In this document: piece after piece, positions 4,845 through 49,270 of the stretch
How the letters are laid out: each line of letters opens with the position of its first letter
How positions within the stretch are numbered: the stretch's first letter is position 1
Virus record (IMG/VR): IMGVR_UViG_2541047850_000005
Location: 1 to 64,000 of that record
Length of the DNA stretch: 64,000 bases
DNA from: a virus
Taxonomy: Duplodnaviria; Heunggongvirae; Uroviricota; Caudoviricetes
Direction: 5' to 3' (one strand)
The notes under the pieces: generated by a model
Seen by the model: only the letters and a program-made list of their open reading frames with translations
Database searches by the model: none
What the model was told of the DNA's origin: nothing
Made by a program: the position numbers and the translations under genes

Positions 4845-5327
4845 TTACACGCCATCAAGGATGTGGATGCGGTTGCTTGCGTATACATTCAGCATAAAGT
4901 TAGCGCAAAACAGTTTCCATGTATCAACGCCAGCGGTATACGTAATGTTTTTGCATTTAATTGCATTGTTGGCGATCCGCATCCCCTGCGATACTGCTTC
5001 ATCGTCGGAAAATTTGAACGACGATTGAGTTTTAATCCAGACAGAAATCTGCGTAGCGAACTCAATCAGCTTGGACTGGCAGAATCGCCCGGAGCGCACC
5101 GGAAAGACGAACGTTCCGAATCCAGAATTTACCACATACGCTTTCTCAAATACCCGCGAGTAACGACGATTGCCAATGATGTCGCGTGCAATAATGCATT
5201 TTTCTTGTGCTGACAGTTCTACCGTCTCATTGTCGCGCCATGCACCAAGTACTCGTTTTTCAATGTCAGAGAACGTTACAGCGATATTGCCATGTGCGGG
5301 TGCGTTTACAGTAGCGATAAAATTCAT
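4845..5327 (-). CDS. hypothetical protein (160 aa)
   Basis: ATG at 5325..5327 with AAGGAA RBS; conserved AACAAATTGTTTTC motif upstream. Confidence 0.5.
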   Translation of the reverse strand: MNFIATVNAPAHGNIAVTFSDIEKRVLGAWRDNETVELSAQEKCIIARDIIGNRRYSRVFEKAYVVNSGFGTFVFPVRSGRFCQSKLIEFATQISVWIKTQSSFKFSDDEAVSQGMRIANNAIKCKNITYTAGVDTWKLFCANFMLNVYASNRIHILDGV

Positions 5328-5677
5328 GATTAATTCCTTATCGTAAATAACAAATTGTTTTCTTGTTGGCGTTAATTATCGTTGTACGAATAAGGCATCA
5401 AAGTGGAAAGTTGCGGTAGCCGGACGGGAACAGGTGGGTTTGTCGGTTGCCTGGAGGTAAGAGGTTGGTGTTTTTAGCCTGCGGGAAACAGGATGGTCAT
5501 TTAAGGCCACCAGCAGTGGTGGCCTTAATAATTATCGACCGATTACGCTAAGGATCTTTTCCTCAACTGATTTGTTGTTGCGACTAAACTGCCTTGCGTA
5601 TCTGATGACAGAAGAGGCGTTTTGCTTTCTGACTATCTCGGCTCTTTCCTTCAGGCGTTTCTTGAAATCGCCCATAT

Positions 5678-6052
5678 TTACCACCAGGCGCAGAAGGTCA
5701 GTCTGTTATTGTGAAAGTCGTGGTTCTTAATCAGCTCTTCCACAAGTTTTTTCAACTCCCCCACGTCATGCCAGTACCCTTCATCGTACTCCTGACTGCC
5801 GAAGAAAAAACCTTCACAGGTAGGTAAGTACTCTTCGCAGTTACTTTCGTTCATGTGCATCAAATGAGCTTTCAGAGCACAAATGTCATTCATCGTTAAT
5901 TCTAAAAGCTCACAATTTTTGACTTCACCTACGTTGCGTTCCATCCACCCAAAGAGAGCATTGAACTTACGGAAGTAAGCAACCTTCTTTCTGGATGCAT
6001 CGTTATTCAGATCGTTTTTTGGTTGCGTCTCAATGTAGATATCAAGTCCCAT
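5678..6052 (-). CDS. hypothetical protein (124 aa, Cys/His-containing)
   Basis: ATG start with AAGGAAACC RBS and upstream palindromic motif. Confidence 0.5.
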   Translation of the reverse strand: MGLDIYIETQPKNDLNNDASRKKVAYFRKFNALFGWMERNVGEVKNCELLELTMNDICALKAHLMHMNESNCEEYLPTCEGFFFGSQEYDEGYWHDVGELKKLVEELIKNHDFHNNRLTFCAWW

Positions 6053-42356: not shown

Positions 42357-42395
42357 CTGTAAGCCGCGCCACGACTGGTCTGAAGCCATGTTCAT

Positions 42396-42497
42396 GTATG
42401 CTGTCAGCGGTAATTGATAGTCTGTCAGCGGTTCACCGTATGCTGCCAACTGTTTTTGGTATTCTGTCAGCGGCAAATCAAGTATGCTGTCAGCGGT
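42396..42497. repeat. iteron cluster upstream of repA (about 4 copies of TATGCTGTCAGCGGT-like 15-mer)
   Basis: direct repeats at ~42398, 42421, 42461, 42483. Confidence 0.8.
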
Positions 42498-42517: not shown

Positions 42518-43612
42518 ATGTCCACAAAAAATAAAAAAGGTAAAAATAACAAAGAAGTAGAAGATAACATCGACAACTTTGAAGAAGGTTCCCTTGAATT
42601 GTACACAGGGGAACTTGTCCCTAATAGCAACAATACAGTCCAACCAATTGCGTTGATGCGACTGGGGTTGTTCGTCCCCACGCTTAAGGGAACAAAATAC
42701 AGTAAACGTAACAAGCCAAATGAGATCGATGCTTCAAAGGAGCTTGTCCAGCTCGAAGTAGCCCGTTCTGAAGGCTATTCCGATATCAAGATAACCGGTC
42801 CTCGTCTCGACATGGATCATGATTTCAAAACGTGGGTGGGCGTTGTGCGTTCGCTGGCAGAATACGGCGAACCTAATGGTCGTGTCGAGTTAAGCATCAC
42901 GAAATTTGCGAAGTTTTGTGGCTATCCATCGTCACAGATCCGCAAAACACTCCGCGACCGGCTTACAAACAGTCTTTTGAAGATCATGCGTACAACTCTG
43001 TCTTTCCAGAGAACGTATGAAGAAAAGAACGTCGACGGCTCTAACAAGATCTCGCTTCTGATGGTGCACCTCATCAATAGCGTGGACTACAACGAGCAGA
43101 AAGATACGGTGGTGTTCTATGCAGAACCGAAGCTGGCCGAACTATATCGCTTTGACCATAAGGTTCTTTTGCAGTTAAAGGTTATCAATAAGCTACCACG
43201 CAAAGAAACAGCACAGGCTCTGTACACCTTCATCGAAAGTCTTCCAACCAAGCCTGCGCCGGTATCGCTTGCTCGATTGCGTGCGCGACTCAATTTGAGT
43301 AGCAGGAATGTCAGCTCGCAGAATCAGACTATACGTAACGGCTTAAAAGCTCTCCAAGATTTGGGCTATCTCGAATACAGCGAGATTAAGCGTGGGCGGT
43401 CGATCTATATCCAGATTCACAGCCGCAATCCAAAACTCAAAGTCGCACCGCCAAAACCTGAAGACATCGAACCCAAAAAACCAGATGAGAAAGCTGGGGA
43501 AATTGATGCCAAACAGAACATTATCAACAAGATAACCGAACTTTCGCAGAATTTGACGCCTGAAAATATCAAGATGATTGAGATCCTTTCCAATAGTCTC
43601 AAACTGCTTTGA
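42518..43612 (+). CDS. repA: iteron-type plasmid replication initiator (RepA/RepE-like)
   Basis: 364-aa basic protein flanked on both sides by iteron arrays; start set at ATG MSTKNKKGK (track ORF runs through the upstream iterons). Confidence 0.7.
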   Translation: MSTKNKKGKNNKEVEDNIDNFEEGSLELYTGELVPNSNNTVQPIALMRLGLFVPTLKGTKYSKRNKPNEIDASKELVQLEVARSEGYSDIKITGPRLDMDHDFKTWVGVVRSLAEYGEPNGRVELSITKFAKFCGYPSSQIRKTLRDRLTNSLLKIMRTTLSFQRTYEEKNVDGSNKISLLMVHLINSVDYNEQKDTVVFYAEPKLAELYRFDHKVLLQLKVINKLPRKETAQALYTFIESLPTKPAPVSLARLRARLNLSSRNVSSQNQTIRNGLKALQDLGYLEYSEIKRGRSIYIQIHSRNPKLKVAPPKPEDIEPKKPDEKAGEIDAKQNIINKITELSQNLTPENIKMIEILSNSLKLL

Positions 43613-44143
43613 TATGCTGTCAGCGGTGAAATGTATGCTATCAGCGGCTATTTTTCTGAAAAGTATGCTGTGAACGGTTAAAGATATGCTACCAGCGGTA
43701 TAGTGAGATAAACGTATGCTGTGAGCGGTAAATCATCTATCACCACTCAATGCTCTTTTATACCTCCCCAGTGGTTACTAACCTCGAAGAGTGCATTCCA
43801 TATAGGTTTGCGCTCACTAACATTCTATTCCCATTGCGCTGATTACTTGTAGTGAAAGGTATTTATTGCCTGCTGCTCCCTGATAGAACGTATGCTGTCA
43901 GCGGTGTTTTATTGAGGAATTTTTGTTTGGATATGCTATCAGCGGTAATTAATGGCATATGTCAGACCTTCGTATGCTGCCAGCGGTAATTTTGTTCTGG
44001 TTATACCCATACCGGTACACATTATTCATGCAATGTCTTAAGTATGCTGTCAGCGGTAAAAAATCGAGTAAAGTATGCTGTGAGCGGTGAGATAGACTCT
44101 CGATATGCTATCAGCGGCAGTTGATTGTGTATGCTGTCAGCGG
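43613..44143. repeat. iteron array downstream of repA (about 12 copies, incA-like copy-control locus)
   Basis: TATGCT(G/A)(T/C)(C/G)A(G/A)CGG(T/C) repeats at ~43613, 43634, 43663, 43684, 43715, 43891, 43932, 43973, 44043, 44073, 44104, 44129. Confidence 0.85.
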
Positions 44144-44191
44144 TGACGACTATGAAATATGACTGCGGAACGTGCCGCAGTCAGTTTGCAT

Positions 44192-44404
44192 TTAGTGTAT
44201 TTTCTTCAACAGACCCCAAAGTGTTCCGGCTTTTGTAGTCAGTTTTCCTGTTTCTGGATCGTACATACGCCATTCACGCCGCTGGTGGACGATATACCCA
44301 TCTTCACGTTCCAGACGCTCAAGAATGCCAGGCTGCTTGAAACCCTTAGCACGCCAGTATCCGCTTGTTTTCTCGATTTCCAGACCTGCCAGTGTTAATG
44401 CCAT
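44192..44404 (-). CDS. hypothetical basic protein (70 aa)
   Basis: ATG overlapping stop of upstream gene (TAATG). Confidence 0.4.
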   Translation of the reverse strand: MALTLAGLEIEKTSGYWRAKGFKQPGILERLEREDGYIVHQRREWRMYDPETGKLTTKAGTLWGLLKKIH

Positions 44405-44739
44405 TATCCAACCTCCTTGCAGTCATCGAAAAGGTAGCTTTGCTGAGAAGCGTGAACGCCATAGAAGCCCTTGTATTTGTTGTATACGAAGTGGTCTTCT
44501 CCGACGCCGGTTAATTTGCCATTACGGTTTGTGAGATATGGGGATGACAATACTCGATCGTCACGCACAACATAGAACTGGTCGCCGCTGTCTACGACCA
44601 TCGCTCCATATGGTGCTTTTATGACGTCGGTAAGAGCGCCATTCTTAACGTCGGCTACAGACATTTCACACTGATAAACAGTGGTGTCGGTCACAACGAT
44701 CGAGGAAAGGAACAACAGAGCGAATGGGATGGCCTTCAT
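44404..44739 (-). CDS. hypothetical secreted protein (111 aa, signal peptide)
   Basis: N-terminal MKAIPFALLFLSSIVVT hydrophobic signal; AAGAGG RBS. Confidence 0.5.
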   Translation of the reverse strand: MKAIPFALLFLSSIVVTDTTVYQCEMSVADVKNGALTDVIKAPYGAMVVDSGDQFYVVRDDRVLSSPYLTNRNGKLTGVGEDHFVYNKYKGFYGVHASQQSYLFDDCKEVG

Positions 44740-45711: not shown

Positions 45712-45803
45712 GTTTTCTTATCCTTTTAAACAAATTGTTTTCTTAATAAGATAATTGCGATAAAAAAGGCGTCCAACTGGACGCCTGATCTTCTCAAAGA
45801 GAG

Positions 45804-46634
45804 TTATTTCACTGTAATGAAAGGAGTGTTAGCCCCTTGAGTCATGTACTGCGGTAACTGGCCATTCCATTTATTGATGGCTTCCAGCTCCATAACGTTC
45901 GGGTTTTGACGCAGAGCTTCACCGCGCAGACGAATGGCGTCTGCTTCTGCTTGCGCACGAGCACGGATAGCATCAGCTTCACCATTAGCCTGTTCACGTA
46001 GCATATTCGCCTCAGCTTTACGTTGTTCAACTTCCTGCTGACGTTGCAGAGTACGCTGGTTAGCCGTTACTTTGGCGTTGATAGATTCAATGACGGTTTT
46101 TGGGTAATCAGGCTTTCCAACCCATGACAGGCTCAGTACCTCAATACCAACCGGAGACATCTCTTTCTGAATATCTTTCAGTGCGTTGTCCAGCAATTGT
46201 GCCTTACCACCGTCGATAAATGAGTCAGTGGTCATACGGCTGGCCAAACGGTTTAGAGAGTCGGCAATTTTCTGACGCAGATCTGATTCGGTGATATCGT
46301 CTACGCCTTTGCGATAGGTCTGGAACACCGTCGTTACCTTGTCACGATTAACCAGATACGCAACGCCAATTTTGTGACCAATAGCAGTACCGTCACTCAT
46401 CTGGAATGTGAACGGCTCGTCGTAGGTCTTCATTTGTTTGAAGGTCGGGAATACGTAAAGTTCGGTGTTAAGACCTGTCCATTGGCGACCAACGCCAACT
46501 ACTTCACCAATCCCTTTGTCTTCACCTAATTTGTTTACTTTGATGCCAACGTATCCAGGCTCCACGCGATCACAGCCAGTAAGACCCATTGTGCAAACAG
46601 CGGCCACGATCACTGCCAGTAAACCTTTCTTCAT
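45804..46634 (-). CDS. SPFH/band-7 (prohibitin/HflC-like) lipoprotein
   Basis: lipobox signal MKKGLLAVIVAAVCTMGLTGC, SPFH-like core followed by A/E/R/Q-rich coiled coil. Confidence 0.7.
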   Translation of the reverse strand: MKKGLLAVIVAAVCTMGLTGCDRVEPGYVGIKVNKLGEDKGIGEVVGVGRQWTGLNTELYVFPTFKQMKTYDEPFTFQMSDGTAIGHKIGVAYLVNRDKVTTVFQTYRKGVDDITESDLRQKIADSLNRLASRMTTDSFIDGGKAQLLDNALKDIQKEMSPVGIEVLSLSWVGKPDYPKTVIESINAKVTANQRTLQRQQEVEQRKAEANMLREQANGEADAIRARAQAEADAIRLRGEALRQNPNVMELEAINKWNGQLPQYMTQGANTPFITVK

Positions 46635-46637
46635 TAC

Positions 46638-46838
46638 TTACTTCTCCTTCGAATTGATGAGTGACTTTAGAAACTTACGACCTGCAATAAACCCGATCAC
46701 AGGAGCGCCAAAAGCAACGATGATTCCAAGCATTACGGCAATGTCGCTTTTAGTAGAGATCAGCGACGGAACCAGCAAACAGTAGATGAAAACTACAGAT
46801 AGACCTGTAACTACTGCCATAAGATAGAGTTTGATCAT
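46638..46838 (-). CDS. small two-TM membrane protein (66 aa), partner of SPFH gene
   Basis: two hydrophobic segments; stop 3 nt before SPFH start (coupled). Confidence 0.5.
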   Translation of the reverse strand: MIKLYLMAVVTGLSVVFIYCLLVPSLISTKSDIAVMLGIIVAFGAPVIGFIAGRKFLKSLINSKEK

Positions 46839-46930
46839 GTGTTTTCCTATGTGGTTGTTATGCGAAAATAATAAGTAAGTGCTTATGTATTTTCAAGAGA
46901 TAAAAAAGGCGTCCTGTGGACGCCTTGTGT

Positions 46931-49270
46931 TTACTCTTCTACTGACTCGGTGGGGTTGTCTTTTGCTCTTCGGTCGTCGATTGCCTGCAAAGCCGCAATG
47001 ATTTCAGCCAGTGGCTTCTCCCGATACATCTCGACGATCTGCGATTTGGTGTATTTCTTGTCACCAATTTCAACTCGCCCGCTGGCGTTCTTTGGCAGGT
47101 ATCCTTCTTCCAGCATGTACTCGACGAGCGATTCGATAACGTCGAGGCCACGAGTAGGATCGAAGTAGAATTTCCAGGTGCATTTGCCATACGGTGGTGC
47201 AACTTTGTTTTTGATGCATTCTGCGCCTACGTCCTGGCCGATCTTCTCTTTACCATCCTTCATCACCGATGCACCAAGACGGATACGTACAGAAGCGTAG
47301 AACTTCGGTGAATCTCCACCTGGCGACGTAGTAGGGTCGCCAAACATTACACCGATTTTTGTGCGAACCTGATTCAAGAAGATGATGCAGGCGTTGTATT
47401 TGCGTGCCCACAAAGCCAGAGTAGGGAAGTTCGCACTTGTCGCACGAGCCAGTGCCGTATTGTCGTTCATGTTTAGCTGATCTTTGTCTTTGGCAGTGCC
47501 TTCAGCCATCTTTTCGAACTTCTCGGCTTTGGAGTTCGGAACCATAGACGCAAGTGAGTCAGCCACGATACAGATAGGTGCTGATTCAGGAATAAGCTCT
47601 TCATCACGTACCAATTTAAGAATTGTGCCGATCAACTCTACAGAGTCTTCGAAGGTATCAGGCTGCTTGTATACCCACTGACCGTCATCCTCATCTGCGT
47701 TCAGGCCATTGGCTACAGCCAGGCCAACGTCAAAACTGTTTTCATGATCGAGGAATACCGCCAGACCATCTTGTTTTTGAGCGGAGATCATCGCTGCTGT
47801 TGCAAGGAATGTGTTGTGGCTGATAATCCCGTTAGACCAGAAAGAGTGTGTTTCCGGCATCGCTACGTCGAACGTTGGTGCTTCACCTTCCTCAATAGCC
47901 ACGACTTCGTCGTAGAATAAGTTAGAGCCAATTACCGCTGCCAGTTGTGCAAACAGATGCTCGTTAAAACGATTCTTTCTGCCAATGAAGGAGACATAGA
48001 TTTCTCGCAGTTTGTCTATTCCGACACGATCGCCGCGGCCAATAACGTGGTCTACCAGAGCGTAGTCTTCACGGGTGGTCTTGGTGAGCGACTCGTAGAG
48101 TGATTTCACTAAGCCGCTGATGTGCGGAACATAGCCTGAGTAAGTGCGGTCAAAACCAATGTCCCGTTTGGTTGCCACTGATAAACGTGCCGGAGATTCG
48201 AAACCAATCGTTGACAGAAAAAGGTCGTAATTAGAGCCACTGAATGACAGCCGGTAATATGTATTTTCATAACCCGCGACGTGTTTTTCAGAGATAGTTG
48301 ACGTAATCCCCAGATTCAGGAGCATGAGGCGAATTTGCTGTAGCAGCAGCCCACTCGCGCTCACAACCTCAATGCAGCGACCACCATTGACGTGGCATTC
48401 CAGCTCAAAGTAGCCGCGAAGGAATGCAATTTGAGCCTCGCTATTGGCGCGACGCACACTCAACGGAACCTGCTTGCCAGCAGCTTTCTCATACTCCAGA
48501 CCATATTCTTTAAAAAGCAGCGAACGCACCTCTTTGCTAAACAGCACATGGTCTTCCGAGCCGTTATGTTTTCTCGTAACTGGCATCTTGTCTGATACCA
48601 GCGAAATGAGGCGGTAGTACTCATCCTTGATGAATGGATCTGTGTTAGAAAAATGCACAGAATTTTCAGAGGCCACGTATCCGTCAGCAATTAAATAGCC
48701 CATCAGTTTTGCGATATTGGCATCCAAGTGCTGATCGCCGAATTGATGTGTGCCAACCATTGAAGGAATCGTGTCGCCTACACTGATTTTTTCAGCATAC
48801 CGCCAGACGATATTGCCTAAGTCGTCAACCACACGAATTGGGTGACGGAACGTAGCCTCGATGTAACCCCCTGATGCCAGCTTAATGCGCTTGAATTTGC
48901 GACGGTTGTTCCATGTCAGGTGTGAGGTTTTCTCTATCACGCCATTTTCATTGATGAGTCCAACGTTATGCTCTACATCGCGAGTAGTGCATGTTGCTTT
49001 GTGCCCCTCAATCTCAAACAGTTCTTTCACTGTTACCATTCCACGCTCCGTCAGCAGCATGGTGTCTGCGGTAACACATTTCCCCGCACTTGGAGGACCG
49101 AATACTTCGACGATACGACCACATGGGAAACCGCCATCGTAACGACCGGAAATCGCTTTGTTTAACGGAGGAAAGCCTGTGTCAATCCAATGAGTTACTT
49201 TCTGAATTTCGTCGTTGCTACCGATTTTCTTTTTCAGAGCAAGTGCCAGTGCGGATTTTCCTTTTGCCAT
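46931..49270 (-). CDS. recA: RecA-family recombinase interrupted by a 422-aa intein
   Basis: exteins align by eye with E. coli RecA (RIVEVFGPPSAGK|T.., ..IIFLNQVRTKIGVMFGDPTTSPGGDSPKFYASVRIRL..); extein total ~357 aa. Confidence 0.85.
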   Translation of the reverse strand: MAKGKSALALALKKKIGSNDEIQKVTHWIDTGFPPLNKAISGRYDGGFPCGRIVEVFGPPSAGKCVTADTMLLTERGMVTVKELFEIEGHKATCTTRDVEHNVGLINENGVIEKTSHLTWNNRRKFKRIKLASGGYIEATFRHPIRVVDDLGNIVWRYAEKISVGDTIPSMVGTHQFGDQHLDANIAKLMGYLIADGYVASENSVHFSNTDPFIKDEYYRLISLVSDKMPVTRKHNGSEDHVLFSKEVRSLLFKEYGLEYEKAAGKQVPLSVRRANSEAQIAFLRGYFELECHVNGGRCIEVVSASGLLLQQIRLMLLNLGITSTISEKHVAGYENTYYRLSFSGSNYDLFLSTIGFESPARLSVATKRDIGFDRTYSGYVPHISGLVKSLYESLTKTTREDYALVDHVIGRGDRVGIDKLREIYVSFIGRKNRFNEHLFAQLAAVIGSNLFYDEVVAIEEGEAPTFDVAMPETHSFWSNGIISHNTFLATAAMISAQKQDGLAVFLDHENSFDVGLAVANGLNADEDDGQWVYKQPDTFEDSVELIGTILKLVRDEELIPESAPICIVADSLASMVPNSKAEKFEKMAEGTAKDKDQLNMNDNTALARATSANFPTLALWARKYNACIIFLNQVRTKIGVMFGDPTTSPGGDSPKFYASVRIRLGASVMKDGKEKIGQDVGAECIKNKVAPPYGKCTWKFYFDPTRGLDVIESLVEYMLEEGYLPKNASGRVEIGDKKYTKSQIVEMYREKPLAEIIAALQAIDDRRAKDNPTESVEE
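47813..49078 (-). other. intein with LAGLIDADG homing-endonuclease domain inserted in the RecA P-loop (between K64 and T+1)
   Basis: starts with Cys (CVTADTML), ends ..IISHN followed by Thr; LAGLIDADG-like motifs LMGYLIADGYV and AFLRGYFELECH. Confidence 0.75.

Follow-up and report, generated by a model that had tools for sequence, protein, structure and literature searches.

A candidate phage SPFH scaffold: a lipoprotein and its two-pass membrane partner in an SSU5-type phage-plasmid

Among the described SPFH systems, HflK and HflC, which associate with FtsH, are two paralogous subunits, each with a transmembrane (TM) helix, and form on the periplasmic side a dome scaffold that encloses a patch of membrane. 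The eukaryotic prohibitins PHB1 and PHB2 build a hetero-oligomer, are held by an N-terminal TM anchor and have no small partner, and in the QmcA-YbbJ system (PDB 8z5g) the SPFH gene is co-transcribed with the gene of a small membrane protein thought to lie within the scaffold. Each of these systems resembles in some respect a pair of genes found at positions 45,804 to 46,838, on the minus strand, of a 64,000-nucleotide stretch of viral DNA (IMG/VR record IMGVR_UViG_2541047850_000005; the whole stretch is hereafter called the window). The larger gene encodes a 276-residue SPFH/Band-7 lipoprotein and the smaller one, placed directly upstream, a 66-residue protein predicted to cross the inner membrane twice. 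We lean towards the reading that the two proteins build a phage-encoded SPFH cage, which would sit on the inner membrane facing the periplasm and, more tentatively, might serve in envelope conflict.

An SPFH fold had been proposed for the larger protein in a first-pass annotation of the window, and it is supported both by the match to Pfam Band_7 (PF01145; residues 23-209, 2.6e-30, 106.2 bits against a cut-off of 23.6) and by structure prediction. The AlphaFold model, built with an alignment of 82 sequences of 36-95% identity and having a predicted local distance difference test (pLDDT) score of 83, comprises a signal helix (residues 2-20), an alpha/beta SPFH region (21-176) and a continuous 65-residue helix (179-243), followed by a short helix (245-255) and a low-confidence tail, and thus contains the alpha/beta domain, the long helix and the C-terminal cap segment of the SPFH architecture. 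When the model was compared with the PDB using Foldseek, full-length matches were obtained to HflK (7vhq_E, 1.8e-14), prohibitin-2 (8rrh_B, 2.6e-14), HflC, PHB1, erlin1/2, stomatin, flotillin and QmcA, with E-values from 1e-14 to 5e-8, and also to the major vault protein. Apart from the vault shell, all of these are SPFH assemblies of the cage or dome type, and as modelled the window protein is a genuine member of the cage-forming type. Near-invariant small residues recur along the long helix (A191, A207, A209, A216, A220, A227, A229 and A231) and the C-terminal tail is conserved as KWNGxLP...PF (W256, G258, P261, P271); the recurring alanines and the tail probably reflect tight helix packing and a cap. 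Over 29 distinct cassettes the ratio of nonsynonymous to synonymous substitution rates (dN/dS) of this gene is 0.028.

In profile searches the protein is about equally distant from QmcA (2.5e-7, the best PDB profile match), HflK (2.4e-6), HflC (3.5e-5) and prohibitin (3e-4), and it misses the NCBIfam equivalog cut-offs of HflC (30.2 bits against 134.4) and HflK (18.7 against 159.4; TIGR01932/TIGR01933). Because of these similar distances and missed cut-offs we regard the window family as an SPFH subfamily of its own. The likeness to HflK/HflC lies in the fold, with its long helix and cap, and in the dome scaffold predicted for the periplasmic side; however, the window pair does not consist of two paralogous SPFH subunits with N-terminal TM anchors, but of one subunit with a predicted lipid anchor and a separate two-TM protein. 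The prohibitins share with the window protein a comparable length, the order of domains and, besides the structural match, weak sequence similarity in the helix and the C-terminal portion, and some members of the window family are named 'prohibitin family protein' by NCBI.

The N-terminus, MKKGLLAVIVAAVCTMGLTGC, shows the basic region, hydrophobic region and lipobox ([LVI][ASTVI][GAS]C) of a lipoprotein signal, namely MKK, hydrophobic residues 5-17 and LTGC at 18-21, with Asp22 at the +2 position after Cys21. This cysteine never varies among 40 aligned sequences that share 30-61% identity with the window protein, it is at least 90% conserved in another alignment, and a lipobox-like Cys occurs at positions 11-31 in about two-thirds of 150 family representatives. 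Likewise, the protein belongs to PHROG 200, 'lipoprotein' (2.6e-107). The lipobox and the long tail of the first-pass annotation were thereby upheld, as were both open reading frames (ORFs), at their coordinates and on the minus strand, and the coupling of the SPFH gene to an upstream two-TM partner.

The smaller protein has two hydrophobic segments (residues ~4-27 and ~33-53) separated by a five-residue polar loop, STKSD, and ends in a basic tail, RKFLKSLINSKEK; the predicted topology is N-in/C-in, with the basic tail in the cytoplasm. It matches PHROG 1130, 'membrane protein' (3.3e-25), and no Pfam family at E <= 0.1. At the junction of the two genes TAA is followed by 3 nt and ATG, with AAGGAG 9 nt ahead of the ATG, and in relatives the genes overlap by 4 nt (P88, phiP27, Vibrio, Alcaligenes) or 8 nt (N4). 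As regards gene position, the 'NfeD-like' arrangement of the first-pass annotation is a fitting description, a small membrane protein gene adjoining the SPFH gene as in SPFH-NfeD operons. As regards identity it is not, since the protein belongs to a family of its own (phrog_1130) without a Pfam match and, with about 45 of its 66 residues transmembrane, leaves no room for the oligonucleotide/oligosaccharide-binding (OB) fold domain; NfeD (PF01957) was ruled out as the partner. The lack of this domain also distinguishes the window pair from QmcA-YbbJ, and QmcA faces the cytoplasm, in contrast to the periplasmic face predicted for the window protein. Another parallel is YdjI (SamI) of Bacillus subtilis, part of a system with PspA, which is reported to be an SPFH protein without a TM helix of its own that is recruited to the membrane by the dedicated non-NfeD partners YdjG and YdjH. 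YdjI is nevertheless cytoplasmic, has unrelated partners and is encoded in a chromosomal stress operon, and the likeness is one of published descriptions.

A two-TM ORF was found directly upstream of every SPFH gene examined among 83 viral-contig and reference loci, and in diverged classes as well. All partners have in common the motif P-x-L-I-S at the periplasmic end of TM1, for example in LLVPSLISTKSD, GFLLPSMVSALDS, VGPALISAVST and IAPPLISSDDW. In some relatives the two proteins are one polypeptide: in a survey of 50%-identity cluster representatives (the best 150 of 194 clusters, below 1e-30), 18 of the 150 carried the two-TM domain fused to the N-terminus of the SPFH protein, in the order two-TM domain, basic linker, third hydrophobic helix, usually ending in a lipobox-like Cys, and SPFH domain. 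A hidden Markov model (HMM) made from the free small proteins matched 12 fused proteins (5e-11 to 1e-4), in 11 of them at the N-terminus and in the twelfth, P0151, at the C-terminus, whereas SPFH members having only a signal peptide gave E-values above 1. Fused forms also occur in Acidobacteria and in candidate-phyla bacteria. The predicted topology of the fused forms, in-out-in-out with the basic linker inside, is the one to be expected from the two separate proteins, in which the tail of the small protein would be cytoplasmic and the lipoprotein signal would run from inside to outside. With a dN/dS of 0.17 in the same 29 cassettes, the small protein is an evolutionarily fixed partner, paired with the SPFH protein across several bacterial phyla and kept under purifying selection. 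In the class with 77-78%-identical SPFH genes (L049-L083; for example L052, 1500-1810) the partner ORF ends in a run of A, GAAAAAACC or GAAAAACC, before the SPFH start, and copies differing by one A encode either a 72-residue protein ending beside the ATG or a longer ORF that runs past the SPFH start; the run could be slippage-prone or a sequencing artefact.

The window region is 99.9% identical to Escherichia phage PhiR41_1, ~97% identical to the phage-plasmid Cyrano and 80% identical to Salmonella phage SSU5, and it matches 692 plasmid records; because of these matches we take the window to be an SSU5-type phage-plasmid of E. coli. Relatives of the cassette were detected in 748 of 5,426 complete E. 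coli genomes (~14%), at 418 chromosomal and 425 plasmid places, and on four temperate backbones, in contexts defined here, as elsewhere, from annotated records. Besides the SSU5-like phage-plasmids these are P1-like phage-plasmids, in which the pair lies between tRNA genes and beside the dnaB/ban helicase gene, lambdoid prophages, in which it lies within the left early operon, and the P2-like phage P88, in which it corresponds to gp11 and gp12. The lambdoid Shiga toxin (Stx) phage phiP27 also has the pair, its small ORF being unannotated. Pairs, usually with a 4-nt overlap, were likewise found in Vibrio, Alcaligenes, Dyella, Luteibacter, Sutterella, Cohaesibacter and uncultured phage contigs, and a contig of Yersinia pestis NCTC5923 (L095, 108 kb) has a 93%-identical SPFH gene with a small partner at 5001-5828. 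The N4 genome record, for its part, annotates gp20 as 'similar to Yersinia pestis protein'.

Among 50,697 phage records, 373 carriers were detected by tblastn, many of which we class as virulent from their taxonomy. They include N4 and other Schitoviridae, Vequintavirinae (4MG), Bruynoghevirus and crAss-like phages, ~220-kb Caulobacter phages (Karma), the Lak megaphage Lak-B9 and the Myxococcus phage Mx1. In the virulent podovirus N4 the orthologues of the pair are gp19 (68 residues), which belongs to phrog_1130 and gives a partner-HMM match at 6e-13, and gp20 (278 residues), a member of phrog_200 with 62.6% identity to the window protein. The two genes stand in the same order as in the window and overlap, but the N4 pair lies in a co-oriented run of genes near those of RNA polymerase II (RNAP II), beside gp18, whereas the window pair is bounded by terminators. 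The genes next to the module elsewhere are those of DNA polymerase A, DnaN or UvsY. The usual neighbors of the module are early genes or genes of DNA metabolism, and a position next to repA is not a conserved feature of the carriers. The first-pass annotation had found the location odd for a membrane scaffold, an impression that disappears in this comparison, because other phages (P1-like, lambdoid, N4 and others) likewise carry the module among such genes.

The pair is a mobile two-gene accessory module of phages, in the window a separate transcription unit. Both genes are already annotated in databases in generic terms, and are not new; it is the non-NfeD two-TM partner, the series of fusions, the predicted lipid-anchored periplasmic orientation and the breadth of phages which make the pair a distinct variant of the SPFH scaffold. 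The module is common, occurring in Yersinia pestis plasmid contigs, Stx phages and the model phage N4 as well as in about one complete E. coli genome in seven, and compact, with two genes, one of them for an obligate partner not described before, which in some lineages is fused to the SPFH protein. A viral use of an SPFH cage is therefore directly testable in E. coli, with N4 as a ready model system.

We hypothesize that the SPFH protein, lipidated at Cys21, would stay on the periplasmic face of the inner membrane, a placement to which the Asp at +2, the alpha-helical nature of the partner and the predicted topology of the fused proteins all point. It would oligomerize through the 65-residue alanine-rich helix and the conserved tail into a dome of the HflK/C or prohibitin kind. 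Since a lipid anchor alone, with its acyl chains in one leaflet, gives no transmembrane ring, the two-TM partner would supply such a ring, with one copy per subunit. The assembly would then fence off a patch of inner membrane together with any host protein or lipid enclosed in it, and would be made early in lytic growth and, in the plasmid-prophage state, from its own promoter in some conditions. As to what the cage would do, our best guess, offered tentatively, is a role in envelope conflict, either as superinfection exclusion or as a shield from membrane-targeting abortive-infection effectors. It is more doubtful that the cage acts as an envelope immunity device which seals or monitors the inner membrane of the infected or lysogenic cell, and which would block the entry of a superinfecting genome, feed the superinfection signal into the lysis inhibition of N4 or blunt membrane-targeting abortive-infection effectors. 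If exclusion or counter-defence were the function, the mechanism would be new: no viral function had been assigned to an SPFH scaffold before, and exclusion or counter-defence would gain a class of systems with a non-NfeD partner family.

The superinfection-exclusion proteins T4 Imm and Sp, T5 Llp and P22 SieA, small lipoproteins or proteins of the inner membrane that phages produce early or from the prophage (compare PMC10883804), offer a functional analogy to the window pair, although they have no sequence or fold relationship with it and none is an SPFH scaffold. In favor of an envelope conflict are several of the neighboring genes. In N4 the adjoining gp18 belongs to PF17420, 'superinfection exclusion gp17'; L091, an Alcaligenes-type prophage contig, has an Acb2/Tad1 gene 70 nt ahead of the partner ORF; and in a 168-kb phage contig a NADAR gene stands beside the pair, its precomputed Gad2 annotation not being reproduced with Pfam. 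In the Vi01-like phage SH19 an SPFH gene that may belong to another subfamily lies beside a 'superinfection exclusion protein' gene. Furthermore, the pair is carried by virulent and temperate phages alike.

Several observations weigh against this model of the cage and its use. Of some 10 diverse contexts, only about 3 have conflict genes beside the pair, and neither protein matched PADLOC-DB 2.0 at E <= 0.1. Arg at +3 after Asp at +2 is, by the Lol-avoidance rules, not the strongest signal for retention in the inner membrane. At ~4600-5000 in L096 and L097, from the chromosomes of Shigella flexneri and E. coli, a 78%-identical SPFH gene lacks an upstream two-TM ORF; no other close relative departs clearly from the pairing, and this copy may stem from a decayed prophage. 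A dN/dS as low as that of the SPFH gene speaks more for a conserved host target or for constraints of self-assembly than for an arms race, and the background expression of the Cyrano pair in lysogens grown in lysogeny broth (LB) fits poorly with constitutive exclusion by a prophage. A literature search gave no functional study of phage SPFH proteins, only genome descriptions, two of which call the role unclear, and in the searched literature we found no virus-encoded SPFH protein with an assigned function. The presence of an SPFH protein in a phage 'remains unclear' according to PMC13239085 (2026), and the preprint on N4 lysis makes no mention of gp18, gp19 or gp20.

Of the other explanations, the one that fares best, although we consider it unlikely, is that the pair modulates FtsH by mimicking HflK/C or prohibitin. 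The periplasmic cage would capture or displace the host FtsH and alter the degradation of membrane or regulatory proteins, such as CII-like lysogeny factors, LpxC or phage membrane proteins. The predicted membrane side and architecture are those of HflK/C and the prohibitins, which enclose FtsH-type proteases and are the top Foldseek matches, and weak sequence matches extend to HflC and HflK; yet the family cut-offs of both are missed by far, and the profile is no closer to them than to QmcA or prohibitin. There is, moreover, a single SPFH gene in place of a paralogous pair, and a lipid anchor in place of a TM helix. The very strong purifying selection and the presence of FtsH in all the hosts would suit a conserved host target. 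Lambda cIII, an inhibitor of FtsH (PMC1838920), is located in the left early operon, where the lambdoid pair also lies, but many carriers are strictly virulent and have no lysogeny decision to make. The same idea was raised by the authors of PMC8540360, who noted the analogy with HflK/C but also that obligately lytic phages carry the gene. If control of FtsH were the function, it would be a second phage route, beside lambda CIII, to the main membrane protease of the host.

A hairpin directly after the recA stop is predicted to close the transcription unit upstream of the pair, a promoter-like site lies ~25 nt upstream of the small ORF, and a second hairpin follows the SPFH gene (Table 1). The two hairpins that flank the cassette (stem-loops at 45768-45785 and 46908-46924) share one 7-bp stem, GGCGTCC/GGACGCC, only their loops being different; this stem occurs just twice in the window, against 0 occurrences expected in a pattern search. 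The twin hairpins may be the borders of a cassette that was inserted, or simply a reused terminator, and no foreign-DNA signature was found in the base composition of the cassette. The block of hairpin and promoter is kept among the window, Cyrano and SSU5 with 87% column identity, although silent sites in the coding sequences of the window and SSU5 are saturated (synonymous rate, dS, 1.5-2.0).

Table 1. Sequence features of the SPFH cassette and its borders in the window.
Feature	Position	Strand	Details and basis
Intrinsic terminator hairpin	46906..46926	-	AAGGCGTCCACAGGACGCCTT + T-run, directly after recA stop; terminator scan
Sigma-70-type promoter-like site	46868..46896	-	TTGAAA-17 nt-TATTAT, 10/12 matches; promoter scan
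Gene of 66-aa two-pass inner-membrane protein	46638..46838	-	ORF, hydropathy, phrog_1130
Shine-Dalgarno AAGGAG of SPFH gene	46644..46649	-	Inside last codons of small ORF; direct sequence reading
Gene of SPFH/Band-7 lipoprotein, 276 aa	45804..46634	-	Pfam Band_7, phrog_200, AlphaFold, Foldseek
Intrinsic terminator hairpin	45767..45786	-	AGGCGTCCAGTTGGACGCCT + T-run, 18 nt past SPFH stop; terminator scan, pattern search

Expression of the Cyrano orthologues, CYRAN_56 and CYRAN_57, can be followed in the RNA sequencing (RNA-seq) data of strain LF82 carrying Cyrano, obtained in two replicates (S1 table of PMC9928086). In LB overnight cultures both genes were at background (log2 2.3-4.3), whereas inside macrophages at 6 h they reached log2 7.3-7.7, the flanking recA and CYRAN_58 remaining near log2 4 throughout; several unrelated Cyrano genes likewise went up in macrophages (PMC9928086). 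Because the pair rises in macrophages while recA and CYRAN_58 stay flat, it is regulated on its own and constitutes a unit separate from recA, with predicted transcript ends. The promoter-like site, the two terminators and the conserved intergenic block agree with a moron, but the expression in the lysogen during ordinary growth that a moron should show was not seen, the Cyrano orthologues being at background in LB. The pair is thus not a constitutively expressed moron, and it is missing from the moron list of the authors (PMC9928086).

The induction in macrophages, not shared by the neighboring genes, would suit a module for membrane maintenance or stress, which we find quite unlikely and rank behind control of FtsH. 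Here the cage would stabilize the inner membrane, as do flotillin or PspA-linked SPFH systems, keeping the infected cell energized over long latent periods or allowing the lysogen to tolerate envelope stress, with lysogenic conversion and virulence among the possible consequences. Among SPFH proteins elsewhere, E. coli HflKC is reported to aid tolerance to aminoglycosides and oxidative stress (PMC10434171); the YdjI protein of B. subtilis is reported to link PspA to the membrane (PMC8581546) and, in a 2026 bioRxiv preprint, to be recruited by the membrane proteins SamG and SamH. Likewise, an HflK/C-like SPFH protein of a Pasteurella multocida prophage affects virulence and occurs in outer-membrane vesicles (PMC9872710), although it may belong to another subfamily. 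The carriers include N4, which shows lysis inhibition, and the large phages 4MG, Karma and Lak-B9. Nevertheless, the RNA-seq comprises two replicates, in which the rise is shared by several unrelated Cyrano genes, and activation of TLR2 is generic to lipoproteins.

That the two genes form a pair of toxin and regulator, in which the 66-residue protein would be a holin-like or depolarizing toxin restrained or timed by the SPFH protein, seems to us very improbable. The tight coupling of the genes would agree with it, and in topology and size the small protein resembles pinholins, having two TM helices, N-in/C-in, and a basic tail, like a class II holin. This reading was however downgraded because of the one-polypeptide fusions, whose implied one-to-one stoichiometry is that of a structural partner. 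Moreover, the pair is distant both from the lysis cassette of Cyrano (holin, endolysin and spanins, CYRAN_22-25) and from the lysis genes of N4 (gp60-63), and conservation in the small protein is highest in the periplasm-proximal motif and not in a pore-lining face. The suggestion, also made in the first-pass annotation, that the pair is a membrane tether by which replication or partition of the plasmid replicon is anchored, for which the location in this element, with recA on one side and the repA-iteron region on the other, might speak, was rejected on topology and distribution and retains practically no probability. No DNA-binding or cytoplasmic domain is present in either protein, most of the SPFH protein being predicted periplasmic and the sole cytoplasmic part a 13-residue tail; repA is not a conserved neighbor; and integrated lambdoid and P2-like prophages as well as virulent phages without plasmid replicons carry the pair.

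The position 'between repA and recA' given in the first-pass annotation holds for one side only. The recA-like gene (46931..49270, minus strand), interrupted by an intein with a LAGLIDADG domain, is indeed the immediate upstream neighbor, but repA lies 2.2 kb from the pair on the opposite strand, and five small genes without an assigned function and an iteron array, which flanks repA, follow the pair on its 3' side before repA is reached. The recA/UvsX-like recombinase is 779 residues long owing to the intein (Intein_splicing, residues 73-486; LAGLIDADG_3, 279-356), the SSU5 orthologue being intein-free with 358 residues, and in many plasmid records the gene is labelled merely 'LAGLIDADG family homing endonuclease'. 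At least 14 copies of a 16-nt iteron, GTATGCTGTCAGCGGT, are found on both sides of repA (42392-42497 and 43608-44144), in a P1-like layout. The listed repA ORF (404 residues) begins within the upstream iterons, and its real start is probably further downstream, the RepA of Cyrano having 351 residues.

One of the small genes, at 44404-44739 (minus strand), encodes a 111-residue protein with an N-terminal signal-like hydrophobic segment that belongs to phrog_2077, to which no function is assigned. Its Cyrano orthologue, CYRAN_61, rises together with CYRAN_60 and CYRAN_62 from background to log2 8.3-9.0 in macrophages, exceeding the SPFH pair. In a 40-kb uncultured phage contig with an SPFH pair (L121), the gene at 8375-9133 matches PF04896 (AmoC, ammonia monooxygenase subunit C) and lies near genes for a CbbQ-like AAA ATPase and a methyltransferase, and may be an auxiliary metabolic gene. 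Finally, a 9.7-kb Logan contig encodes a protein of 303 residues (P0018) in which a large part of the SPFH protein, 99% identical and covering 82% of the query, is joined to the DUF7238 of the downstream neighbor, for which a deletion or an assembly error is more probable than a natural fusion.

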